The notes beneath the pieces were generated by a model. It was not told the DNA's origin, made no database searches, and worked only from the letters and a program-made list of their open reading frames with translations. DNA of 64,000 nucleotides from Thermodesulfobacteriota bacterium (lineage in GTDB: Bacteria; Desulfobacterota; Binatia; Bin18): assembly GCA_964291405.2 (NCBI GenBank), contig OZ219926.1:3136001-3200000 (forward strand), read 5' to 3'. Of this stretch, positions 52,282 to 64,000 are shown piece after piece. The translations under genes were made by a program, and so were the position numbers. The first letter of the stretch is position 1, and the number at the start of each line of letters is the position of its first letter.

Positions 52282-54542
52282 TCAGCCCTGATTACGCCAG
52301 GCAAAGGCGCCGGCCAACAGCGTCGCGCTGAGCGCTGGCCCCCAACCGGCTAGGGTGGGCGACAGAGTCCCGCCATAGCCGAGTGAGGCACACACCCCGG
52401 TCAACAGGACATAGCCGACGCCAAGGACGCTACTCACCAATAAGGTTACGGCCGGGCCCGGAAACGGCGGACCGTGCAGAGCAAAGAACAAGACGATAGC
52501 CGGGAGCAGCATGCAGGCCAGGGGCGCGGCGTATTTGACGTTGAGGTCAACGCGATAGGTGGTGACGTCATAGCCGGCCATTTCGGTCCCGGTGATTTCC
52601 TGGGCCAACTGCCAGACGCTCAGATGCATGGTGTCAAGCTGGATATCCGGGGCCTCCCCTAATCGGATAAGCGGCTCGGCCGGCTCTCGCTCGAGGCCGT
52701 TTTCCGAGATGCGAATCCGGACCGGATCATCCAGCTCCCACATTCCATCGCCGATGTGCCTGGCCCGGCGTGCGTCGGTCCGGCTGAGGGGTAAGCCCTG
52801 GTCTCCAAGTTCGTAGATCGACAGGTCGGTGGCTTCGTCCAGGGCCGGGTCGAGCCGGGTTGCCTGGGACACATGGCTACCGGCCCGGTACCAGACTATT
52901 TTCTGTAACACGCCGGTGGGGAGGGCGCGATCCTTGACTTCCGTCTCTTTGAGGCGGTCGGCCAGGGCGTTTGAGCGTGGCACGACGGATTCATTCAAGA
53001 CAAAGGAGAGGGGCGTGACGAGGCCGGCAACGAGGAGGATACAGGACAGTGTGCGGGTGGCTGAAATCCCGCACGCGCGCATGCCAATCAGTTCCCGGTG
53101 GAAGGACAGGAGACTGACGGTCAGGGCGGTGGCCAGCAGGAGGGCCATGGGAACGATCCGTGAGGCCAGCAGGGGGGTGCGGGCGCTGTAGAAGCGGAGG
53201 GCTTCGGCTGGCGTGGCATTGTGGCGGGCAAACCATTCGAGGCGTTCAAGAATATCAACCAGGAGATATCCCACGAGCAAAAAGCCGAAAGCCAAGCCCA
53301 GCATGAGAAGGTAGTGTTGCAGTACGTAGCGTGGCAGGAGGACCTGTCGCGTTTGGAGAGCCATTGGAGACGCTGCCTGGGCGGGATCCTGGACCGGCTG
53401 TCCATCGGGAGTGCGCCGTCTCACCCAGGGCCGGTCTTGTAGCCCGAGGAGGAGAGCGGCGAGCATACCAACAAGAATATTGGGCAGCCAGACTCCCAGC
53501 CCGACCGTCACCGCACCCGCCTGGACAAGTCCGTCGCCGAGTTGCGTCAAACCGTAATACACCACGCTAAGAACCAGTCCGAGGACGCCACCCGACGCGC
53601 GTGAGAAGCGTGGTCCCAGACAGGCGAGGGGCAGAGCTAACAGGCTGAAGACGAGACCGGCCGCGGGGGCTGCAAAACGACGATGCAGTTCGGTGCGAGC
53701 GCGGCGCGCTTCCGGACTCTCTCCTACGGTTTGGTCAATGAGAGCCTGCAACGAGAGCCGGGTGAGCGGCTGGACGGGCCAGGCCTCGGTGCTCTGTGGT
53801 TCCCGGATCACGGTCTCAAAGATCTGGAAGCGGGTCTCCCCGCCGCCTTCCTGGGGAGAGAGAAGAATAACGCCATCGTATAAAGCCAGCCGAGCAGTCC
53901 CATGCGCCAGGGGCTGTATACTCCCGCGTTCGGCAAAAAGCGTCTGCCCGGCAAAATAGTCCTGCCCCGTATCAGACACCCACAACAGCACGCCGCGCAG
54001 GGTATCGCCACGCGCTGAAATTTCTCGGGCGACCATACGGGTATCACCGAACTCATGCACGCTGCCGGGACGAAGCGCCACGCGGGGTTTTGCCGGATCA
54101 TACTGCGTAACGCGTCGTCCAGTGAGCGGAGGGCGGCCGGTGCGGTAAACAGAGAAAAGCCGAGCCCAAGGAGCGTCATGGCCGTGGCAAAGCCCAGAAT
54201 CGGCAGAACCAAATGCCGACGGGCCAGACCGGCAGCCTCAATGGCAAGCAACTCCCGGTCAGCCCGGAGACGGCCCAGCCCGACCAGGGTGCCCACGAGC
54301 ACGGCGAAGGGCAGGGTGCGAGAGAGGAGGGGGATCAACTCATAAAAGGCGATCCAACCTACCGCAGCAGGGCCCAGACCCCGATTGATCACCAGGTCAG
54401 AGAAGCCGAGCAGGTCTTTTGTCAATACCAGTGCGGTCAGCCCGAATAACGCCCACAGGGTTGGCGCAAACAATTCGGCGACAATATAAAAGCCGAGCGG
54501 TTGGCCGAGCTGTCGCGAAGAGCAAGAAGGGAGGACGCGCAT
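52282..54542 (-). CDS. Fused LptF-LptG permease, with a 1-nt frameshift near 54083
   Basis: Two YjgP/YjgQ halves (LGRLRADRELLAIEAAG..ELHRRFA..WLPNI and RELIGMRACGIS..KYAAPL). The frame break at NP-[G]-VALRPG is repaired by one base. Confidence 0.8.
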
Positions 54543-54645
54543 TGCTGGAAGTCCATCTTTGGTTGCCAATAGCCTTATCCTGCTTGATTCGTTGCTTGTT
54601 TTCTCTTATACCGGGCAGAATAATTCGGCTACTGTGTAATAATCC

Positions 54646-55425
54646 ATGAAGGCTATTATTCTGAGCGCGGGGCAGGGCAAGCGCCTTTTGCCCCTCACCG
54701 AAACAACCCCTAAATGCCTGTTACCGGTTGATGGCAGTCGGCCCGCTCTGGAAATCCAACTCCAGACGCTGGCCGCGTGCGGCATTCAACGCGCAACGGT
54801 CATGGTCGGCTTTGGGGCAGACAAGGTGGAACAGTTTCTCGCCCGCTGTCCGCTGCCGGAGATTGAAGTGACCAGCCGCTTTAATCCTTTTTTTGCGATC
54901 TCGAACAATCTGGCCACATGCTGGACTGCCATCCCGGAGATGACCGAGGATTTTGTTCTGCTGAACGGCGATACCTTATTTGAGCCCGCGGTGTTAGAGC
55001 GCCTCCTGCTCGCTCCGTTCGCGGCTGTCAGTCTGGCAATTGATTGCAAGCCCAGCTATGACGACGATGACATGAAGGTCTCGATTCGGCGTGAGCGCAC
55101 CTTGGCCGCGGTGGGGAAGAACCTGTCACCGGCCGTCGTGCATGGCGAATCCATCGGACTCATGACTTTTCGTGCCACTGGCGTGTACGCCTTCCGGGTT
55201 GCTTTGGAGAAAGCCATGCGCGATCCGACCGCGCTCCAGCGCTGGTATTTGTCAGTCATTGATTCCATGGCCAACTCATCAATGGTCGAAGTGGCCTCAA
55301 TCGAAGGTCTGTGGTGGGCCGAGACCGACACGCCGGAAGACCTGGCGGACGTGCGGGCCTATTTTTCCTCTCAACGGACCACGCTCGCCGCTTTTGAAAC
55401 AGCCGCGCCAGTTGGCGAGCCATAA
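54646..55425 (+). CDS. Phosphocholine/phosphoglycerate cytidylyltransferase-family NTP transferase
   Basis: Motifs ILSAGQGKRLLPLT..PKCL, LLNGDTLF, DDDDMKV, GESIGL and WAETDTPEDL. Confidence 0.85.
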   Translation: MKAIILSAGQGKRLLPLTETTPKCLLPVDGSRPALEIQLQTLAACGIQRATVMVGFGADKVEQFLARCPLPEIEVTSRFNPFFAISNNLATCWTAIPEMTEDFVLLNGDTLFEPAVLERLLLAPFAAVSLAIDCKPSYDDDDMKVSIRRERTLAAVGKNLSPAVVHGESIGLMTFRATGVYAFRVALEKAMRDPTALQRWYLSVIDSMANSSMVEVASIEGLWWAETDTPEDLADVRAYFSSQRTTLAAFETAAPVGEP

Positions 55426-55601
55426 GCATGGGCCGATCTGCCCGTGCCGAGCACCACCGGGGGTGCGTCCGGCTGAAACCAAGGATGATCGAGGGGCGCG
55501 TGTGCCTTGGTGTGCAGGTCTGGAGTGACAACAGGATTGTAGATAGTCGTGATACGCCCCCTGCGCTCAAGTCGGGGATGAAGAAAGCGAGATGGACCAT
55601 C

Positions 55602-56618
55602 TCACAAACTCGCGTGCACAGCCTGTCCCAAGCGTGCAACAATACCTTTCCGCAAAGGGGACTGAAAAAAAGCATTCCAGGCGTTTCGGCCCATACCGGC
55701 TCGGGCCGCCCAGCACGTTTGTAGCCATTTCTCACTTACTGCGCGGGCGAATGCCCGCTCGGAGTATCGCCGGACCCGTCGGTTGGCCGCTGTCAGTCCG
55801 AGCAACCACGCCTCGGCCCAATCAAGGTATGCGCGGTCTGGGACAAAGCGGAATTTTCGCATGCGCGACAGCATGAGGTGGGCGCGCAAATCTTCCTCCA
55901 CACAAGGCACACCTAAATTCGTAAGCTGATGTCGCACGATCTCGGCTTTTTTGGTGTTCCCGAGTTCCTGAGTACGGACGGTGATCTGGCCAGGATGGAC
56001 GCGGGCGTACGTCAAGACCTGCGGAAGATTGGCCATCTTGTGGCGCGCGGCAAGCCGCACGTGGAGGTCATAATCCTGACAGCGGGCAAAGCCGCTCCGG
56101 TATCCGTACTCCCGTAGCGTGGCGGTCCGGCCCATGATGGTGGTGTTAGTCAGGCTACAGCGGAACAAGAGTTGCGCGTGGATATCCGCTGAGTAGGTCG
56201 GCTGACGTTTGATCTTTCTCAGCACGCGCCCGTGCTCGTCCATGTCTTGCTTCCAGCCGCCGACTTGGACGTAGTCCGGGTGGCGGTCGAGAAAGGCCGC
56301 CTGTTTCTGGAGCCGCCCCGGGCGTGCCGCGTCGTCACTGTCGAGCAAGGCGATGTATTCGCCGCGCGCCAGTTCGAGCCCGCGGTTACGCGTACGAGGA
56401 ATCCCGAGGTTGCGCCCGTTACAGACGACGCGAACGCGAGGGTCGTCATAAGAGCGGAGCACTTCGACACTGCGGTCAGTCGAACCGTCGTCGATCAGCA
56501 GGAGCTCAAAATCCCGAAAGCTCTGTACCAGTACGCTGTCAATGGCCGCACCGACGTAGGCTTCCCGGTTATAGATCGGAATAAAGACGGTGACTTTGGG
56601 TGGATCGTGTGACGTCAT
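55602..56618 (-). CDS. Glycosyltransferase family 2
   Basis: Motifs IPIYN, IDDGSTD, RNRGL..GEYIALLDSDD and QDY. Confidence 0.92.
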   Translation of the reverse strand: MTSHDPPKVTVFIPIYNREAYVGAAIDSVLVQSFRDFELLLIDDGSTDRSVEVLRSYDDPRVRVVCNGRNLGIPRTRNRGLELARGEYIALLDSDDAARPGRLQKQAAFLDRHPDYVQVGGWKQDMDEHGRVLRKIKRQPTYSADIHAQLLFRCSLTNTTIMGRTATLREYGYRSGFARCQDYDLHVRLAARHKMANLPQVLTYARVHPGQITVRTQELGNTKKAEIVRHQLTNLGVPCVEEDLRAHLMLSRMRKFRFVPDRAYLDWAEAWLLGLTAANRRVRRYSERAFARAVSEKWLQTCWAARAGMGRNAWNAFFQSPLRKGIVARLGQAVHASL

Positions 56619-56708
56619 AGCCGTGTGGAGGACTGACTTGCTTTGTGTCTCCCGTCTTGGATATACAACACGCGTCTTCTCAGGAATACTAAGCGCGGGG
56701 CGTCTCTC

Positions 56709-57509
56709 GTGCAACAGCAGATTGTCTACTGGCTGAGCCGTATGCTAACGCGTTTCCTCAACCTCCGTGGCCTCCGTTTGCGCAAGGCGAAAAGCCTGCA
56801 TTTTGTAACCATGAACGGACAACGCTTCAAGCGGCTACAGTTTGCCGACTCAGCTATTACTAGAGATATAGAACGCAATCTTGAAGCCTTCCGGGCTGAT
56901 GACATCTTCCCGCGATTAGTCACCCGCTACGAACACGAGATTTGGGTTGACTTTGTTGAGGGGGAGCGGCCCAGGCAGGTGACAGAGCAGGTCGTGCGTC
57001 AGGTCGCCGCATTCTATACGACCATTTACACCAAACATCCAACGCTGACCGACACCACCCAGACGGCCTTTCCTACCCGTCTTGCCCAAGACCTGCGTTT
57101 TTTACATCAGGTGGGTGTCCTGTCCGACCCCCTGTACGCACAGCTTCAGCGCGTCGTTGAGCAACTCGCGCCACCCCGGGTCTGGACAGGATTTGACTAC
57201 ACCGACCCGGTGCTCAAGAATTTTATTCTCAGCCACAAGAACGGAGGGCTCTACGCTATTGACGTTGAAGGGCTTGCTGACAACCAGTTGATCGGAATGG
57301 GCACGATCAAGGCGAGTCTGCGCTGGCTTGGGGAGTTCCGTCCACTTTTTTACACACACCTTGCCGAACTCGGTGCTCCTGACTTTCAGCCCTATTTGCC
57401 GTTTGTGGAGCTGTGTTTTCTGGCCAAATGGACTAAGCGGAATTTCTTTGAAGGAAAAAAGAAGAAGATCGATCCAGGGTTGTTTGAGCGGTTTTGCAAG
57501 AGATGTTGA
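56709..57509 (+). CDS. Kinase-like (APH/Kdo-kinase fold) hypothetical protein
   Basis: WVDFVEG, catalytic-loop-like YTDPVLKNF and AIDVE. Confidence 0.6.
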   Translation: MQQQIVYWLSRMLTRFLNLRGLRLRKAKSLHFVTMNGQRFKRLQFADSAITRDIERNLEAFRADDIFPRLVTRYEHEIWVDFVEGERPRQVTEQVVRQVAAFYTTIYTKHPTLTDTTQTAFPTRLAQDLRFLHQVGVLSDPLYAQLQRVVEQLAPPRVWTGFDYTDPVLKNFILSHKNGGLYAIDVEGLADNQLIGMGTIKASLRWLGEFRPLFYTHLAELGAPDFQPYLPFVELCFLAKWTKRNFFEGKKKKIDPGLFERFCKRC

Positions 57510-57580
57510 TCTTCTCGCTGGCTTCCCACTCCTGAACGATGACGGCATTGGGGGGACAAAGCGCCGCCGGGGGATATCCC

Positions 57581-58738
57581 TCACCCAACGTCAACGCCGT
57601 ACTCTTTCAGCAAGGTGCGACTGATCACGACATTTTGAATTTCCGTTGCGCCGTCCGTATAGTGGGTCATCTTGGCCATGGCCAGGTGCCGACCAAACGG
57701 GTAGTTGGTGCGTAAACCTTCTGCGCCCATGACCTGCATACACTGTGAGATGCCGCTAAAGGCCACGCGGCTGGCGAATTTCTTGGCATGGGCGGCCTCC
57801 ACAACGGCGCTCTCTCCCCGGTCCAGGGCCAGCGCGGCACGATAGGTCAGCAGACGGGCAGCCTCAAGCTCCGTTGCCACATCCGCGAGTTCCCATTGCA
57901 GACCCTGAAAGTTCAGAATCGACTTGCCAAAGGCGTGTCGCTTTGCTCCATACGCCAAAGCGGTCCTGAGGCTGGCCTGCAACATGCCGCAACAGCCCGC
58001 ACCAACAAACGTCCGCGCCATATTGATGCCCCGCATGGCGGCCTTGAATCCATCCCCTGGACCGAACAACAGATCGGCCTCGGAAACCGGACAGTTGGTC
58101 AGCCTGAGTCCCGTGACTCCCAGCGCCTGTCCGCCCAGCATGGTGTACTGGGGGGTGCGTTCAAGACCTGGAGTATCGCCAGCCAGCAGAAAGCTGGCAA
58201 TACCGCGCCATCCCAAGGCTGGGTCGGTTTGCGCATACACGCCGAACACATCCGCACTGACACCGTTTGTGACCCAGGCTTTCTCCCCGCTCAGCCGCCA
58301 GCCGTCGGACGATTGCTCGGCTCGTGTGGTAATCGCTGTGGCATCACTGCCGGCACCGGGCTCCGTCAGGCAAAACGCGCCGATTCTTTCCCCTGCCAAC
58401 ATCGGTGGAACGTAGCGTGCGATTTGCTCCGGGGTGCCATTACGCGCAATGGTGTTGAGCATGTTGTTGTGAACCCAGAGGCCAAAGGTAAAGGCAAAGC
58501 ACGCTCCGGCCAGTTCTTCCAGCATTTTGGCAGCCGCCAGGAAACTGGCGCCTTGTCCTCCGACTGATTTGGGTGCCAGTACGCCGGTCAGGCCCACGGC
58601 CGCCGCCTCCCGGAAAACAGCGTATGGTACTGTCCGGTTGAGGTCCCACTCTGCGGCAAAAGGCGCAATCTTTTCGACCGCAAACGTCCTCGCCGTTTCA
58701 ACCAATTGCGTTTCTCGGGCGCTTAGCTCACAATCCAT
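57581..58738 (-). CDS. Acyl-CoA dehydrogenase
   Basis: Motifs FCLTEPGAGSD, GEKAWVTNG, R.AFGK and DGATEIQ. Confidence 0.93.
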   Translation of the reverse strand: MDCELSARETQLVETARTFAVEKIAPFAAEWDLNRTVPYAVFREAAAVGLTGVLAPKSVGGQGASFLAAAKMLEELAGACFAFTFGLWVHNNMLNTIARNGTPEQIARYVPPMLAGERIGAFCLTEPGAGSDATAITTRAEQSSDGWRLSGEKAWVTNGVSADVFGVYAQTDPALGWRGIASFLLAGDTPGLERTPQYTMLGGQALGVTGLRLTNCPVSEADLLFGPGDGFKAAMRGINMARTFVGAGCCGMLQASLRTALAYGAKRHAFGKSILNFQGLQWELADVATELEAARLLTYRAALALDRGESAVVEAAHAKKFASRVAFSGISQCMQVMGAEGLRTNYPFGRHLAMAKMTHYTDGATEIQNVVISRTLLKEYGVDVG

Positions 58739-58802
58739 GCTGTCCTCGTATTTGCTCCAGTCGGCAGAACCTCTTAATGCTCTACACATGGGAGGAAAAC
58801 CG

Positions 58803-59507
58803 CTACCATTTTTCTCCGAACGGGCGTAACTCGACCAGAAACGACCAGGCCGACTTGGGCTGATGGGCGGTATGAAAAACCGTTTCCGCTAAATCCGCTG
58901 GCTGGGAAAAGAAATCCTTGGGCTTATCGGGGAGGCGCCGCCGGGCAAACGGCATATCGATCATGGCATCGACCACAATATAGGCCACATGAATTCCGTT
59001 TGGCCCCAACTCGCGAGCTAGGCTTTCGGCCAGGATACGTTGCCCGGCTTTGGTTGGCGACCAGCCGACAAAATTCGGCGTGCCACGCAGCGAGCCTGTA
59101 TTCCCGGTGACCATGAGAGAACCGGAGCCACGCTCTACCATCGCCGGAGCCAGCTCCTGGGCCAGGATCAGAAGGCCGGCGGTATTTATGCGGAAATTGA
59201 GGCTAAAATCCTCCATGCTGATGTCGCGATAATGTCCCAACGTCGCCCGCGCTGCGTTATACACGACGACTTCCGGGAGTCCGTGCTCGGCGACAATGTG
59301 GTTGAGCGTCTGACGGAATGCCCCTTCGTCGGCGATATCAACGGGAAATCCCGCACTCTTCTGGATTTCAGCAGCCCAGGACGCCAGCCGACCAGCATGC
59401 CGGGCAATCATCGATACCCGGTAGCCACCGGCCGCAAAGCGACGCACACACCCCATGCCTAAACCGGGCCCAACGCCGACTACTAAACAATGCGGGGAGG
59501 CAGTCAT
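58803..59507 (-). CDS. Short-chain dehydrogenase/reductase
   Basis: Motifs GVGPGLG, YNAA and KAGQRILAESLARELGP. Confidence 0.9.
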   Translation of the reverse strand: MTASPHCLVVGVGPGLGMGCVRRFAAGGYRVSMIARHAGRLASWAAEIQKSAGFPVDIADEGAFRQTLNHIVAEHGLPEVVVYNAARATLGHYRDISMEDFSLNFRINTAGLLILAQELAPAMVERGSGSLMVTGNTGSLRGTPNFVGWSPTKAGQRILAESLARELGPNGIHVAYIVVDAMIDMPFARRRLPDKPKDFFSQPADLAETVFHTAHQPKSAWSFLVELRPFGEKW

Positions 59508-59568
59508 AATAAATTTCTCCTATGGTTAGAAAAGCAGGGGGCATTATTTCTGGCGGGCTCTACCGGTG

Positions 59569-59804
59569 CAAGGCTGCACCGAATTCTTCTCAAATGCGCT
59601 TACAGATACAAAGACTATTGGTGACCGCTCTGCTCACAATAGGTATTATACGGCGACTCGGCCAGATCTTGATCAGCTTCAGTCAGGAATGCGACTTGTC
59701 GTTGAGGAGTTAATCCAGCTTGGTGATTTGAAGAAAAGGAATTAATTTCTCAAGTTCTTCCTCTTAATTCCTGTCAGGTTCTCTCCGCACAAGGCTGCAC
59801 CGAA
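59569..59804 (+). other. AT-rich insert bounded by 15-bp direct repeats, carrying a 3' gene remnant
   Basis: CAAGGCTGCACCGAA at 59569 and 59790. Frame 59581-59745 reads ..KTIGDRSAHNRYY..VVEELIQL..*. Confidence 0.6.
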
Positions 59805-59813
59805 CACCTTCGC

Positions 59814-61076
59814 TTAATATCCCTTCGCCTTCCGGCCAAAAATTCGTTTTATACGTTCGACCGGTCCAAAGCGACTGACCACCACAATAAAGACCTTGCG
59901 CAGCCGGTCTTCCGGACACTGAAGCGGCCGCATGGCGTGCCAGGAGCTGCCGTTGCGGGCGAAGAGCAGGCTGGAGTTACCGATAGCGTGTGATGCTGAG
60001 ACGCTATCAAAGTCCTCTATGTGTGGTGCGGAGTTGCGCGGGAAGCGACCCCCGTCGTCGAGGAGCAAGGTTTGTCCCCCCCAGGCCGGGTCCCAATCCT
60101 GCTCGGTATTGAAATAAAAAATATGCGAACCCAGCTTGTCCTTGGCGTCGCAGTGCGGCGAGATGGAACAGCCGGGCGGGGTGTAGTGCCAGTGAAAGCG
60201 TAAGGCAAAGGCGTGCGTGTCGAGTAAACGACCAAGAAAATTCTGATAGGTCGGGCCGCGCAGCTCGGCAATAAAATCCTTCCAGACTTGGGCTACCGGT
60301 AGGGAGTCGTGGTAGGCCAATAAAAAGCGATCATGGCTACGCTGGCCGTGGGCGCGCGGTTTGCCAAAGACCCAATGCCACGCCCGGGATTGCCGGCGGA
60401 CCTCGTAGCGGCGCAGCGGGTTCGCATCACGGTCGAACTCGTACACGAACGGCGTACCGGTCAGTGGCCGTTTGACGCGCGGGATGTCGGGTTCGGGCAC
60501 CCCATCGAGCCAGGTCGTCAGGGCGCGCAGGCTGTTACCGTGCGCGACGACCAATACCCGCCGGCCGGCCCTGATGGCCGGAACCAGAGCGTCGCGCCAA
60601 TAGGGTAGTACGCGTGCCCTGACGTCACGAAGGCTCTCGGTCAGCGGCTCTCGATTGTCCGGCCCGGCGTCCCGCAGGTCCATATCGACCAGATCGTCGC
60701 CGGTTTCTCGGGCCGGCGGTGCAATCTCGAAGTGTTGTTGCCATATCGTGACCTGTCGGTGTCCGTAGCGTCGGGCGACATCGGCGCGGCTCATACCCTG
60801 CAGGGCGCCGTAATGCCGTTCGTTGAGCCGCCAGCTTGTCTGCACCGGGATGGACAGTGCCAGGGCGTCTAGCACAATGCTGAGGGTGTCGATGGAACGC
60901 CGCAGCGCCGAACTAAAGGCGATGTCGAACGAGAAACCGTGCGCCCGGAGCAAGTCGGCCGCGGCGCGCGTCTGCTCGCGGCCATGTGAACTCAGTGGGA
61001 CGTCGGCCCAACCCGTAAAACGGCGCGCCTCATTCCAGACGCTGTGGCCGTGGCGCAGAAAGACGACCGGCGTCAT
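59814..61076 (-). CDS. Fusion of a cofactor-dependent phosphoglycerate mutase (GpmA-like) and a 2OG-Fe(II) oxygenase
   Basis: N-half: LRHG..WN..RFTGWAD, RLNERHYGALQG, AHGNSLRAL. C-half: PHCD..WGG..SWH..R. Confidence 0.85.
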   Translation of the reverse strand: MTPVVFLRHGHSVWNEARRFTGWADVPLSSHGREQTRAAADLLRAHGFSFDIAFSSALRRSIDTLSIVLDALALSIPVQTSWRLNERHYGALQGMSRADVARRYGHRQVTIWQQHFEIAPPARETGDDLVDMDLRDAGPDNREPLTESLRDVRARVLPYWRDALVPAIRAGRRVLVVAHGNSLRALTTWLDGVPEPDIPRVKRPLTGTPFVYEFDRDANPLRRYEVRRQSRAWHWVFGKPRAHGQRSHDRFLLAYHDSLPVAQVWKDFIAELRGPTYQNFLGRLLDTHAFALRFHWHYTPPGCSISPHCDAKDKLGSHIFYFNTEQDWDPAWGGQTLLLDDGGRFPRNSAPHIEDFDSVSASHAIGNSSLLFARNGSSWHAMRPLQCPEDRLRKVFIVVVSRFGPVERIKRIFGRKAKGY

Positions 61077-63568
61077 GGCTGCACGCGGAACGGGAGTAGG
61101 CCGCGGACTTGCTCCGTCACCCTGTCGAGTTCCCGCAGGGCCGGCCGCGGCCGGAGTTCGAGTGGATTGTTCGAGACACCGGCATCCGGAAAAAGCGCAG
61201 CGCTGCCCTGTTCGATCAACGCGACGTGAAGCGCGTTCAGGTCACGCCGCGGCTGGACGATGCCGCGTTCGATCAGCCGCCCGCACACATACGCCAGGCC
61301 GCGTTGTGGCCGCGGGCGACCCCGTTTGTTTCTCTGCTGGGATTGGGCGCGCATGAGGATCCAGTCTTTAGCCCGCTCCAGGACACCGGCCGACCGCTCC
61401 GCGAGGGGATAAATATACACGGGCTTTTCTGTTGCCACGGCTTCGGCCAGCATGGATTCGCTCTCGCCCGTCACGATCAGGAGGTCGGCCAGCGCCAGAT
61501 AGCCCAGGTAAGGGTTGTCGGCCCGGTCTGGTCGCCACGCATACACCGAGTGCCGCGGCCCCAGGCTAGCTGCCAGCGCCTTAGCCGCGGCATGGCCGGT
61601 TCGACGGCTGGTCGTGGCGAACACTGTACCGTGGAGGCGTTCGGCGAAGGCCCGGACCTCGGCGCCAAGCCGGTCGGCTTGGTCGGGGGTCAACTCGTGT
61701 CTGGCGGTCGCGCCGCCGACCAGTAGCATGATCCAGGGGCGCGGCGCGGCTTCGACCTGATCCCGCCACGTGTCGGCTGCGGTTTCAAGCCGTTCGGGAT
61801 TGACCTGGGTGACCGGCGCGCCGGTCTCGATACGTCGCGGGTGGGGTGGGAGACGGAAATGCTCGCAAACGACACTGATGTCGGTCGGCGCGACTGGTCG
61901 GCTGCCAATGCGGCCCAACAACACGAGATGGGTTCGGCCGTGGCTTTCGTGCTGAATCCAGCGCGCGACCCGACCCGGGCGCCAGCCCGCGACGATCACC
62001 AAGTCTGGCCAGGGTGGGCCGAGTACGTCGGACTGGCTGATGTCCAAGCCACGGCGTGTCGCCCGGTCGGTGCCGAGCAGGTATTTGTACAGGCCGGTCG
62101 GCCCCCGGAAGTGCAGGGTCTTGGTCGTGTACGGCCAGCCGAGGGCATCAGCCAAGCCGCGGGCCTGCGTGGTATGCCCTGGCTTATGCGAGATCAGCAC
62201 CCACACGATGGGTTCATGTCCAAGGGCTCCGCCGGCATAGTCGCCGTCCGCACGTCCGCTGTCGGTCGGCGCTTCGAGACGGAGATGCCAGCGCAGCTTC
62301 GGGTAACGACGGCTGGCGGCGTCCAAATGCGTCTGCCACCAGGGTAGTGGTCGCACCCGGCCCTGGAGACGGGTGCCGTTTGGTAGACGGTGTTCATACG
62401 GAACCACGTTGACCGAGACAGACACAAAGCGATGGGCGCGACGAAAGAGCTCTTCCAACATCCACGGGACATCCTCGTCAGGAAGAAAATCCAGGGTATC
62501 TGTACAGACAACGCCGTCTGCGACTTCGCAGGCGGAAGGGGTTGGGGCGGCAAAGGCCGGATTATAGTGGGATACGAGAGGGTCATGACTACGAGTCAAA
62601 GAGGGACTGAGGCCAAAGGAATAATCCAGTAGGGTGCGACTCTGTGTGGTTACTCTGAGTTTTTCTATATGCTTCTGAAAGTCGTTCTTATGACCATTTC
62701 GAGTTGCTTGCATCGAGCAGGCCGGCGGGGCGGACTGGGGCGAAGCGTCCCGTATGTGAGCGCACACCGCTAGGTATTGGGTGCTTGGCCGGTGGACCTG
62801 AAATACCTGATAGCCGGCTTCGTTTGCTGCCTGTTCCAGGTCAAGCCAGACCTGCCCGACGGGGTTGTGTTGGTAGGCGAATCGCTGGGGAAACGGTTGC
62901 CAGGGCTGGGCATGAATCGTGGTATAGTGCAGCAGCTTGGAGCGTCTCGGGTCATACTCATCGTCCCGCGCGTTCCAGTGGGAGTCAAGCTGGCCCCAGA
63001 GGCCGGAGATGGCGCGTGCCTCAGCCTCCAACCGCTGGCGCCGCTGCCGTTGGGCGGCCTCCAGCGTCCAGGCTGAGGCCATCCGTTCACAATCGATCAA
63101 CATAACCGAGGTATCGTGATCGTGAATGGACAGAAAACCGGAGTTGCCCATAGCGGTGTCGAACAGCTCGCCGGGATCGGCCAGATAAATCTGGTCGGTG
63201 TCATTATAGATGGCGCGCCCGCGCCCCCCGGCAAAATGCGGGATGGCAAAGCGGTAGTTCGTAAAGCCCGTCAGCCAGCCGCGCCGGTCAAAACCGGCCA
63301 GGTCTTTCATCAAGTATAATTCGTAGACGCGCGCCGGGTCGCGGACCCGTTCAATCGACCAGACGAAGACCCGCTCGGCCCGATACTGGTCCGGTTCCGT
63401 TCCGATGAAGATACGGACCGGTGGTCGCTCGCTCGGAGTCATCCCTTCTCGAACACCGAGGACGACACGTTCGAGCTGGGTACGGGTGCCCGGTCTGGCA
63501 TACGGCTCTGCCCGCAGCAGTGCCGCTATTCTCTTACGCAGTGGTACTGAAAAACCCGAAACGCCCAT
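61073..63568 (-). CDS. Three-domain protein: GT-A (GT8-like) glycosyltransferase, methyltransferase-like domain and ELM1/GtrOC1-family domain
   Basis: RIFIGT..TGFTNYRF..AIYNDTDQIY, then DGVVCTDTLDFLP, then KPGHTTQARGLA..TTSRRT..NPYLGYL..VTGESESMLAEA. Confidence 0.8.
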   Translation of the reverse strand: MGVSGFSVPLRKRIAALLRAEPYARPGTRTQLERVVLGVREGMTPSERPPVRIFIGTEPDQYRAERVFVWSIERVRDPARVYELYLMKDLAGFDRRGWLTGFTNYRFAIPHFAGGRGRAIYNDTDQIYLADPGELFDTAMGNSGFLSIHDHDTSVMLIDCERMASAWTLEAAQRQRRQRLEAEARAISGLWGQLDSHWNARDDEYDPRRSKLLHYTTIHAQPWQPFPQRFAYQHNPVGQVWLDLEQAANEAGYQVFQVHRPSTQYLAVCAHIRDASPQSAPPACSMQATRNGHKNDFQKHIEKLRVTTQSRTLLDYSFGLSPSLTRSHDPLVSHYNPAFAAPTPSACEVADGVVCTDTLDFLPDEDVPWMLEELFRRAHRFVSVSVNVVPYEHRLPNGTRLQGRVRPLPWWQTHLDAASRRYPKLRWHLRLEAPTDSGRADGDYAGGALGHEPIVWVLISHKPGHTTQARGLADALGWPYTTKTLHFRGPTGLYKYLLGTDRATRRGLDISQSDVLGPPWPDLVIVAGWRPGRVARWIQHESHGRTHLVLLGRIGSRPVAPTDISVVCEHFRLPPHPRRIETGAPVTQVNPERLETAADTWRDQVEAAPRPWIMLLVGGATARHELTPDQADRLGAEVRAFAERLHGTVFATTSRRTGHAAAKALAASLGPRHSVYAWRPDRADNPYLGYLALADLLIVTGESESMLAEAVATEKPVYIYPLAERSAGVLERAKDWILMRAQSQQRNKRGRPRPQRGLAYVCGRLIERGIVQPRRDLNALHVALIEQGSAALFPDAGVSNNPLELRPRPALRELDRVTEQVRGLLPFRVQP

Positions 63569-63587
63569 GGCCTGACAATTCTATACC

Positions 63588-64000
63588 TTACGCAATTTTC
63601 CGTGCGTCGTGAAACGACGCGGTCGCGTCAACTGGTCTGAGCCGCCCGTCCTCTAACCGGTAGACATGGTCAGCAATATCCAACAGGGCCGGCTGGTGGG
63701 AAATCGCCAGAATCGTCATGGTTCCACGCAGTTGCTGAACGGTCTGGCAAATAGCGGCCTCACTCTCAGGGTCAAGCGCAGTGGTGGCTTCATCCAAAAT
63801 GAGGAGTTGAGGCGTGTGCACCAGAGCGCGGGCAATAGCAATCCGCTGCCGCTGGCCACCGGATAAACGGGCGCCCCGCTCTCCGACTCGCGTCGCCATT
63901 CCGTCCGGAAGGTTTTGCACAAACTCCCAGGCTCTCGGCGGCGCGTAAGGCCGCTTTTACGTCCGTCCTCGGTCAGCGCGGTATCGCCCAGCGTCACGTT
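63588..64000 (-). CDS. ABC exporter ATP-binding domain (MsbA-like C-terminus), cut by the window edge, with frameshifts near 63935-63965
   Basis: Motifs LSGGQRQRIAIARAL, LILDEATTALD and ISH. Confidence 0.88.

Follow-up and report, generated by a model that had tools for sequence, protein, structure and literature searches.

A gene island that crosses the right end of the 64,000-nucleotide stretch of DNA analysed here (the window: contig OZ219926.1, positions 3,136,001-3,200,000) most probably makes and exports an anionic sphingolipid of the ceramide-phosphoglycerate type with extra decoration, as judged from its sequence and by analogy with Caulobacter. The island is about 26.5 kilobases (kb) long and extends from position 52282 to the equivalent of position 78753 (C3:3188282-3214753, the C3 coordinate being the window position plus 3,136,000), the window holding only its left arm. 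Its host, an uncultured sponge-associated Candidatus Binatia bacterium, also keeps genes for lipopolysaccharide (LPS). Open reading frames (ORFs) were called in the window and scanned with Pfam and NCBIfam, and the 18 kb downstream were scanned likewise; positions are those of the window, continued past its end and followed by the strand (+ or -). Every step of the pathway was deduced from homology and genomic surroundings, with an enzymology that comes from Caulobacter only. In this regard, a related but elaborated ceramide-phosphoglycerate pathway had already been advanced by a first-pass annotation of the window. The genes that it named were all recovered in their places by ORF listing and Pfam/NCBIfam scans, and its proposal is now supported by an Spt-like gene, CDP-alcohol transferases, a separate housekeeping lptFG and synteny around the CpgD position.

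The reference for this comparison is the Caulobacter locus CC_1152-CC_1168 (CCNA_01210-01226, where CCNA_01210 is CpgD). According to the portion of PMC11324152 drawn on here, it encodes a LicC-like nucleotidyltransferase (CC_1152, CpgD), a MobA/CofC-like protein (CC_1153), bCerS (CC_1154), LptG2 and LptF2 (CC_1155/56), a HIT protein (CC_1157), a calcineurin-type phosphoesterase (CC_1158), CpgA with a CDP-alcohol transferase domain (CC_1159), the ceramide kinase CpgB (CC_1160), CpgC with a Tam41-type InterPro domain (CC_1161), Spt (CC_1162), AcpR (CC_1163), CerR (CC_1164), AasR (CC_1165), a Wzx-type and a TagF-type protein (CC_1166 and CC_1167) and LptC2 (CC_1168). Set beside that gene list, the island has counterparts of CC_1152, 1153, 1154, 1155/56, 1158, 1159, 1160, 1162 and 1164, and of 1161 by position. 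It differs in that LptF2 and LptG2 form one polypeptide, in that an ABC exporter with a transmembrane and a nucleotide-binding domain (TMD-NBD) replaces the Wzx-type CC_1166, and in that a protein with GT8 and GT-B/ELM1 parts replaces the TagF-type CC_1167. Moreover, it carries a second CDP-alcohol transferase, its own phosphoglycerate mutase (dPGM) and a 2-oxoglutarate (2OG) oxygenase and, as genus-level extras, a GT2 glycosyltransferase, an APH-like kinase, an acyl-CoA dehydrogenase (ACAD) and a short-chain dehydrogenase/reductase (SDR). The same portion of PMC11324152 traces Caulobacter-type genes to alpha-, beta- and gamma-proteobacteria, a distribution from which a host in Binatia departs.

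Predicted ceramide and phosphoglycerate genes

The predicted genes for the lipid backbone, which the first-pass annotation had noted as absent from the window and advised seeking beyond it, are found to its right. At 12 kb past the window end, an Spt-like alpha-oxoamine synthase of 470 amino acids (aa; 76145-77557, +; C3:3212145-3213557) is flanked by a CerR-like NAD-epimerase-family protein (75100-76269, +) and by a bCerS-like GNAT protein of 375 aa (PF00583; 77626-78753, +). The best NCBIfam family of the Spt-like protein is serine palmitoyltransferase NF047600, with 525.5 bits (equivalog cut-off 640) against 391 for BioF; this is a Bacteroidota-type model, a point in which the island differs from Caulobacter. 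The protein shares 36-42% identity with the Spt of alphaproteobacterial loci. Likewise, the GNAT shares 35-43% identity with the GNAT encoded ahead of the CofC-like gene in 44 of 80 related loci, a collection described further below. Spt-like matches (E ≤ 1e-100) occur in 28 of the 121 sampled genomes of the class, including all 14 other sampled genomes of the family of the source genome, and are absent from most other families. Spt, the CerR-like reductase and the GNAT ceramide synthase would together produce ceramide, which the fatty-acid-desaturase-family protein encoded next to them (73928-75055, -) would then modify.

Nearer to the window lie the presumed genes for the head group. A DAG-kinase-type (ceramide) kinase in the CpgB position (71990-72973, +; DAGK_cat E 2.2e-8) is followed after 2 bases by a 327-aa protein without family match in the position of CpgC (72976-73959, +), a pairing that recurs in 52 of the 80 related loci. 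Two CDP-alcohol phosphatidyltransferase genes (PF01066 in both; 65369-66615, -, and 70580-71875, +), a type also noted by the first-pass annotation as absent from the window, precede the Spt-like gene; their products score best on inositol-phosphate-type synthases, far under the cut-offs. Between them are found a MobA/CofC-like nucleotidyltransferase (66650-67606, +; PF12804; TIGR03552 CofC E 6e-7), a SnoaL-like protein (67561-68319, +), an HtrA-like protease (68413-69447, -) and a calcineurin-type metallophosphoesterase (69517-70467, -; PF00149). In the relative G010 (C1:297900-306750), about 6.7 kb of extra sequence stand between the SnoaL-like and the HtrA-like genes, and the first CDP-alcohol transferase occurs only as a 146-aa ORF, which could reflect either locus variation or an assembly fault. 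In the proposed pathway, the DAG-kinase-type enzyme would convert ceramide to ceramide-1-phosphate, the CpgC-position protein would help to add the first glycerate unit, and one or both CDP-alcohol transferases would transfer phosphoglycerate, presumably assisted by the CofC-like nucleotidyltransferase and the metallophosphoesterase, as shown by Caulobacter genetics.

The activated head group would be supplied from inside the window by a cytidylyltransferase of LicC/IMPCT fold (54646-55425, +; PF00483/PF12804), for which we propose a CpgD-type function. The protein has thousands of relatives, with 60-66% identity in metagenome-assembled genomes (MAGs) labelled Binatia, Thermodesulfobacteriota or Deltaproteobacteria. 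Its matches in the PDB are weak (LicC 1jyk, E 1.7e-9; IMPCT 4jd0, E 3.1e-6), the best being generic nucleotidyltransferases (E 5.9e-10), and a close relative was not found in that search. CpgD itself has been characterized as a CTP:phosphoglycerate cytidylyltransferase with a Km of 0.8 mM for 2-phospho-D-glycerate and of 10.9 mM for 3-phosphoglycerate, its nearest known structure being IMPCT 4JD0, and its published residues are R16, K26, N110, G111, D112, M147, K161, S170 and W201 (PMC13228409). In the family of the island protein, R13, K23, N107, D109, M143, K144, K158, E168 and W200 are invariant (n=35: 34 homologues from related loci plus the source protein), and residues of the same kinds as those published for CpgD sit 1-4 positions away in the island product. 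The island enzyme is also 44-57% identical to the nucleotidyltransferase found beside bCerS-like and CofC-like genes in alphaproteobacterial loci, where the gene order is the one given for CC_1161 to CC_1152 in the portion of PMC11324152 consulted. Altogether, these likenesses are suggestive of a CTP:2-phosphoglycerate cytidylyltransferase, which would produce CDP-glycerate.

A source for its substrate is predicted from the same arm of the island. The first 247 residues of a 420-aa ORF (59814-61076, -) form a dPGM, with 244.6 bits for TIGR01258 over residues 4-225 (cut-off 81.7), and are joined to a 2OG-Fe(II) oxygenase part whose match to 2OG-FeII_Oxy_3 (PF13640; E 2.7e-4) is under the Pfam cut-off. 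A second, short dPGM is encoded elsewhere in the genome (C3:2125847-2126476), which makes the mutase of the locus an extra copy; neither iPGM nor myo-inositol-phosphate synthase was found in this genome, which is 97.5% complete. Another copy of the short dPGM lies on a 13-kb contig (C2:3623-4222), which could represent contamination, a haplotig or a repeat that was not placed. An extra mutase fits a dedicated supply of 2-phosphoglycerate, an idea already put forward by the first-pass annotation, which is in line with both the fact that CpgD favours 2-phospho-D-glycerate and the existence of the second dPGM. In addition, a 252-aa dPGM gene, 40-42% identical, stands beside ELM1-type genes in four Kiloniellaceae MAG loci (L072, L075, L076 and L080), so that a phosphoglycerate mutase is tied to the sphingolipid module in another lineage far from Binatia.

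Proposed export and glycosylation genes

At the left end of the island, and divergent from the cytidylyltransferase gene with 76 bases between them as had been noted at first sight, lies lptF2::lptG2 (52282-54569, -). It matches PF03739 twice, with an LptF-like half first and an LptG-like half second, and TIGR04407 and TIGR04408 match both of its ORFs. The fused protein recognized by the first-pass annotation stands as a single frame in relatives; in the deposited sequence, one base missing near 54082 splits it into overlapping ORFs (53808-54569 and 52282-54081). The single open frame, of 779 aa, is found in eleven relatives of the genus and in G019, which belongs to another family. In an intact relative of 758 aa, the LptF part covers residues 19-372 (221 bits) and the LptG part residues 408-754 (292 bits). 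Called fused ORFs measure 758-772 aa in Binatia and 743-806 aa in MAGs labelled Myxococcota, Deltaproteobacteria or unclassified bacterium, and lptF and lptG are separate genes in the loci of Alphaproteobacteria and Nitrospirales. Loci of Binatia and Myxococcota show the divergent pairing with the cytidylyltransferase too. A tree of 27 LptF/G sequences splits the LptF from the LptG type with 100/100 support, and gathers the fused halves of Binatia and Myxococcota in one clade each for F and G, again at 100/100. No literature report of a fused LptFG was found by phrase search.

The likeness to the LptB2FG(C)/LptF2G2 system of Caulobacter consists of two PF03739 halves that match LptF and LptG models, a sphingolipid locus and a separate housekeeping pair. 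The difference is that the halves are covalently fused (758-806 aa) in Binatia and Myxococcota. In Caulobacter, LptF2/G2/C2 can be deleted only in the absence of anionic sphingolipid synthesis, and LptF2 and LptG2 bind the single LptB (bioRxiv 10.64898/2026.04.12.717747). The present genome likewise contains one LptB over the cut-off, adjoining LptC (C3:1672081-1674015). A housekeeping lptF and lptG pair, the existence of which the first-pass annotation had left to be checked, is located at C3:626421-628816, and a better MsbA candidate than the island exporter at C3:567158 (599.4 bits), both some 2.5 Mb from the island; an LpxC gene is found elsewhere in the genome.

Two further cases concern LptF/G proteins of other genomes. 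The genome of Marinimicrococcus flavescens has only two PF03739 matches, both in its sphingolipid-type locus (C79:54954-57184), and the same situation is described for Sphingomonas wittichii (bioRxiv 10.64898/2026.04.12.717747); in M. flavescens, the sole LptFG may serve sphingolipids. In a Nitrospirales MAG, the LptF/G of the locus (C205:47303-49704) have very long branches (2.3 changes per column) in comparison with the other pair of that genome.

The candidate flippase is a TMD-NBD half-transporter of the ABC type (63588-65332, -; PF00005/PF00664), whose gene leaves the window at 64000 with its 3' end inside. An intact relative of 587 aa scores 281 bits on the HepA family and 227 bits on MsbA, both far under the cut-offs. 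Directly downstream, an 831-aa protein in three parts (61073-63568, -) matches PF06258 (ELM1) with 182 bits (cut-off 27). The first CDP-alcohol transferase, the exporter, this GT8/GT-B protein and the dPGM-oxygenase ORF all point the same way and are spaced by 36, 19 and -4 bases, as would be expected of one operon.

The 831-aa protein was modelled from a 30-sequence alignment, with a predicted local distance difference test (pLDDT) score of 81.2, and compared by Foldseek and VIA-align. By the latter, residues 48-254 are a GT-A domain of the GT8 type, closest to 3tzt (Z 17.1; root-mean-square deviation 2.8, 188 residues), WbbM (15.9) and LgtC (15.1), and residues 450-831 are a GT-B domain, with UDP-GlcNAc 2-epimerase (Z 18.0), MurG (16.7) and MGD1 (16.3) as best matches. 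The alpha/beta middle part, around residues 295-450, resembles a methyltransferase or GT-A in the ESM Atlas (0.85-0.88), a lead only. The model thus supports the three-domain glycosyltransferase/ELM1 architecture of the first-pass annotation. Kiloniellaceae encode the N-terminal part and the ELM1 part in two distinct genes. Among 14 control genomes, PF06258 has matches in Caulobacter vibrioides alone, and no PF06258 gene is found in the gene list of the Caulobacter sphingolipid locus as given in the consulted portion of PMC11324152.

The enzymes that complete the left arm are less widespread. A GT2 glycosyltransferase (55602-56714, -; PF00535, E 1.9e-34) occurs in 2 of the 80 related loci, in addition to the genus relative G010 and G019, and its place in the pathway is only inferred. 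Next to it, and overlapping its gene, a 288-aa protein (56643-57509, +), which likely starts downstream of that overlap, has no Pfam or NCBIfam match. The kinase fold assigned to this protein by the first-pass annotation found weak support. On the one hand, Pfam matches were absent from the protein and its homologues (n=7), a profile search of the PDB was also empty, and its model is of low confidence (pLDDT 56.9). On the other hand, among the Foldseek top 50 the rows listed were all APH, macrolide, maltose or fructosamine kinases or CcrZ (E 1e-3 to 4e-2), the ESM Atlas look-alikes were APH (score 0.97), and D188-x4-N193 and D207 are conserved, the reading of these as a motif being our own. 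The protein is thus probably an APH-type small-molecule kinase, although weakly supported as such. Then follow ACAD (57581-58789, -; PF00441/PF02771/PF02770) and, 13 bases from it, SDR (58803-59507, -; PF00106), whose membership of the pathway is uncertain in both cases, as the first-pass annotation had also warned; ACAD would possibly tailor acyl chains. Its best blastp matches occur in 10 of the 80 related loci, with 90-94% identity only in near Binatia relatives and 25-33% elsewhere. A 98-aa ORF without family match (55428-55724, +) overlaps the 3' end of the GT2 gene and is probably no gene. On the left of the island, genes for SIS, UvrB and PCMT make 52282 a sensible border, and right of 78753 there is a glyoxalase-family ORF followed by ORFs without Pfam match.

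In the proposed route, the GT8 + GT-B (ELM1) protein would add sugars to the phosphoglycerate ceramide. In this genus, GT2 may contribute further sugars, the APH-like kinase a phosphate on the head group and the 2OG oxygenase a hydroxylation of the lipid. The ABC exporter would then flip the product, and the single-chain LptF2-LptG2, presumably powered by the only LptB of the genome, would extract it from the inner membrane towards the outer membrane.

Recurrence of the module and frame breaks in the deposited sequence

The recurrence of these genes was followed with the CofC-like gene as the only marker. A HMMER search against 1.84 billion representatives returned 283 sequences at E ≤ 1e-30, and a 13-sequence alignment then led to 591 confirmed of 599 matched contig stretches, from which the best 80 were taken with 10-kb flanks. 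Counts are best blastp matches (E ≤ 1e-10) to the source genes, and many of the 80 loci are cut by contig ends. The metallophosphoesterase and the DAG-kinase were the most frequent neighbours (54 loci each), followed by the CpgC-position partner of the latter (52), GNAT (44), the ELM1 protein and the second, CpgA-like CDP-alcohol transferase (35 each), the cytidylyltransferase and LptF/G (34 each), Spt (30), the ABC exporter (26), the CerR-like protein (24), the first CDP-alcohol transferase (15), the desaturase (14), dPGM and the oxygenase (9 each), the kinase-fold protein (6) and GT2 (2). At least one of Spt, CerR, GNAT, DAG-kinase or its partner is present in 69 of the loci and none in 11, and 32 of the 35 loci that bear ELM1 also hold ceramide or ceramide-kinase genes. 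The labels of the loci comprise Binatia, Alphaproteobacteria, Myxococcota, Nitrospirales, Spirochaetales and Gemmatimonadales, the alphaproteobacterial ones being from Kiloniellales, Rhodospirillales, Geminicoccaceae and Hyphomicrobiales and including the cultured Roseospira marina, M. flavescens and an Azospirillum. In the latter, the partner, kinase, CDP-alcohol transferase, phosphoesterase, LptF/G, GNAT, CofC-like and cytidylyltransferase genes follow one another in the order of CC_1161 to CC_1152.

The deposited sequence was also compared with relatives and with contigs of three public runs from three studies (X1, X18 and X19); run X18 is possibly the source sample and so not independent. 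The runs that hold the locus are mostly sponge and coral metagenomes. In lptF2G2, the run contigs carry an extra C at 54082 in 8 of 14 (X18), 97.7 of 170 (X19) and 8.87 of 8.87 (X1) depth units. Two extra bases in the ABC exporter gene, near 63933 and 63966, are both absent from all the depth of the three runs (3 + 7.7 of 10.7, 26.9 + 54 of 80.9 and 4.7 of 4.7). Seven bases are missing from the first CDP-alcohol transferase gene at the equivalent of 66039, and their insertion is supported by 27.7 of 27.7 (X19) and 2.3 of 2.3 (X18) depth units, X1 having no depth there. The fourth lesion is a gap of 216 bases at 60369 relative to the 96%-identical G010, which joins dPGM to the oxygenase and deprives the latter of its first ~53 residues; the match of the X18 contig ends exactly at 60369, and 240 unmatched letters follow. 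The two enzymes are encoded by neighbouring but distinct ORFs in G010, G019 and the loci of other relatives, with 252-255 aa for dPGM where it is not over-called and 237 aa for the oxygenase. The fusion of both enzymes noted by the first-pass annotation is therefore most likely not a real architecture. The lptF2G2 frames are intact in relatives at 89-96% identity, as is the exporter of G010, and eight partial reads (90-95% likeness) among the raw Hi-C reads of run X24 were uninformative. Since the run contigs and the relatives carry frame-restoring states, the genes appear intact in the population, and the four lesions are most likely errors of this assembly or minor variants. As a side observation, four discrepancies within 12 kb make other apparent frameshifts and fusions of this genome suspect until checked with reads.

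Alternative readings and implications

A different head group on the same sphingolipid is an improbable alternative. According to it, the APH-like kinase and the cytidylyltransferase would form a LicA/LicC-like pair that phosphorylates a small alcohol, be it choline, ethanolamine, glycerol or a sugar, and makes its CDP derivative, which would be passed to ceramide or ceramide phosphate by the CDP-alcohol transferases. The nucleotidyltransferase fold, the catalytic R/K/D positions and the proximity of a kinase-fold gene, 1.2 kb from the cytidylyltransferase, are indeed shared with LicA/LicC and with the IMPCT of Thermotoga. The enzyme matches LicC and IMPCT about equally, public annotations call its relatives phosphocholine cytidylyltransferase or 'choline kinase', and the CDP-alcohol transferases lean, far below the cut-offs, to inositol-phosphate-type synthases. 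However, the kinase accompanies the module in 6 of the 80 loci and the cytidylyltransferase in 34, mostly without the kinase; the family occupies the CpgD position in alphaproteobacterial loci with the gene order of Caulobacter, with M143, K144, K158, N107 and W200 invariant; it comes, here within the operon and in the four Kiloniellaceae loci, with a phosphoglycerate mutase instead of choline or inositol genes; and inositol-phosphate synthase was not found in the genome. Even less probable is that the in-window part belongs to a cluster for LPS core, O-antigen or exopolysaccharide which only happens to adjoin a sphingolipid cluster of no relation to it. Its lptFG paralogue, GT2, kinase, GT8/GT-B and ABC families are all typical of LPS or glycan assembly, with fold matches to LgtC, WbbM, WaaG and MurG; PF06258 genes are reported, in the part of the source consulted, from outer-core loci of Acinetobacter; the genome holds LPS machinery; and GT2, kinase, ACAD and SDR are not conserved beyond near relatives. 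LPS core assembly shares with the island the folds of its GT8 (LgtC-type) and GT-B (MurG/WaaG-type) domains and the logic of a lipid anchor that is decorated, flipped by an ABC protein and extracted by Lpt. It differs in the linkage of the island genes to ceramide and phosphoglycerate genes, the lipid A genes being elsewhere, and the probable operon itself mixes 'glycan' and 'phosphoglycerate' genes. Moreover, ELM1 turns up in 35 of the 80 loci chosen only by the CofC-like gene, 32 of them with ceramide or ceramide-kinase genes and under several phylum-level labels, the module is repeatedly accompanied by the ABC exporter (26 of 80) and by the lptF2G2-cytidylyltransferase pair, and the housekeeping lptFG and MsbA candidate stand 2.5 Mb away.

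A decaying island, in which the frame breaks and the 216-base deletion were real and the pathway a relic in this strain, seems the least probable of all. It would account for four lesions within 12 kb of deposited sequence and for an extra lptF base that reaches only part of the depth in X18 and X19, but contigs of three runs from three studies (X18 with the reservation made above) carry the frame-restoring states, and the relatives keep lptF2G2 and, in G010, the exporter intact. Several observations nevertheless weigh against a Caulobacter-type sphingolipid pathway. Four island genes are damaged in the assembly, and the pathway would be broken in the strain if the lesions were real. The Spt-like protein falls short of the NF047600 cut-off. 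The 327-aa protein in the CpgC position lacks a Pfam match of the Tam41/IPR015222 type; the Tam41 model PF09139 gave zero matches in the genome at E ≤ 10 and was silent in the Caulobacter control too. Orthology with CpgD rests on alphaproteobacterial synteny and on residue kinds found 1-4 positions off, not on an alignment. LptC2 is not in the locus, PF06835 matching only at C3:1672081 and, weakly, at C3:587765, and no dedicated acyl carrier protein (ACP) or acyl-ACP synthetase was seen among the island ORFs and gaps inspected, AcpR and AasR not having been searched genome-wide. Set against the consulted portion of PMC11324152, the Caulobacter genes 1157, 1163, 1165, 1166, 1167 and 1168 have no counterpart in the island. 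GT2, the kinase, ACAD and SDR are restricted to close relatives, and they may have no part in the pathway. In the 27-row tree, the relation of the fused halves to the alphaproteobacterial LptF2/G2 passes through open forks, and the fork that joins the fused F halves with the housekeeping LptF of Binatia has a support of 86/73; a recruitment of the fused LptF2G2 independent of the Caulobacter-type LptF2/G2 is thus possible.

A more speculative extension, to which we give clearly less than even credence, is that the product of the island is a lipoglycan that resembles LPS but has a sphingolipid as its anchor. Ceramide with one or more phosphoglycerate units would be extended by the GT8 + GT-B protein, after which the ABC exporter of the island would flip the product and the single-chain LptF2G2 would extract it. 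The architecture of the GT8 + GT-B protein recalls that of bifunctional polymerising enzymes such as WbbM and LARGE1. The GT2 of the genus and a core-type kinase, which we presume comparable to LPS core kinases such as WaaP/KdkA, would add further decoration. If this were true, the ELM1-type transferase would be a widespread and hitherto unassigned step in the synthesis of bacterial anionic sphingolipids, and the product would stand beside LPS at the host interface in sponge symbionts.

Returning to the ceramide-phosphoglycerate reading, Caulobacter is so far the only organism in which anionic sphingolipids of this kind have been elucidated, and there they can substitute for LPS. The literature found under the names of the lipid was Caulobacter work or papers citing it, and sphingolipids were not mentioned in the literature found naming both Binatota and Binatia. 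The present comparison suggests that MAGs with the labels Binatia, Myxococcota, Nitrospirales, Spirochaetales and Gemmatimonadales share the head-group module, that such loci often carry their own Lpt-type extractor, a single chain in Binatia and Myxococcota, and that a large ELM1-type glycosyltransferase and a phosphoglycerate mutase, both missing from the Caulobacter locus in the part of its description consulted, often accompany the module. What is new is that an uncultured phylum is predicted to have an anionic sphingolipid system of the Caulobacter type in which the Lpt extractor is a single chain, the flippase is of another kind and further transferases are present. It provides concrete candidates for the unassigned steps of the pathway, and structural studies of lipid extraction gain a single-chain LptFG that occurs in nature.

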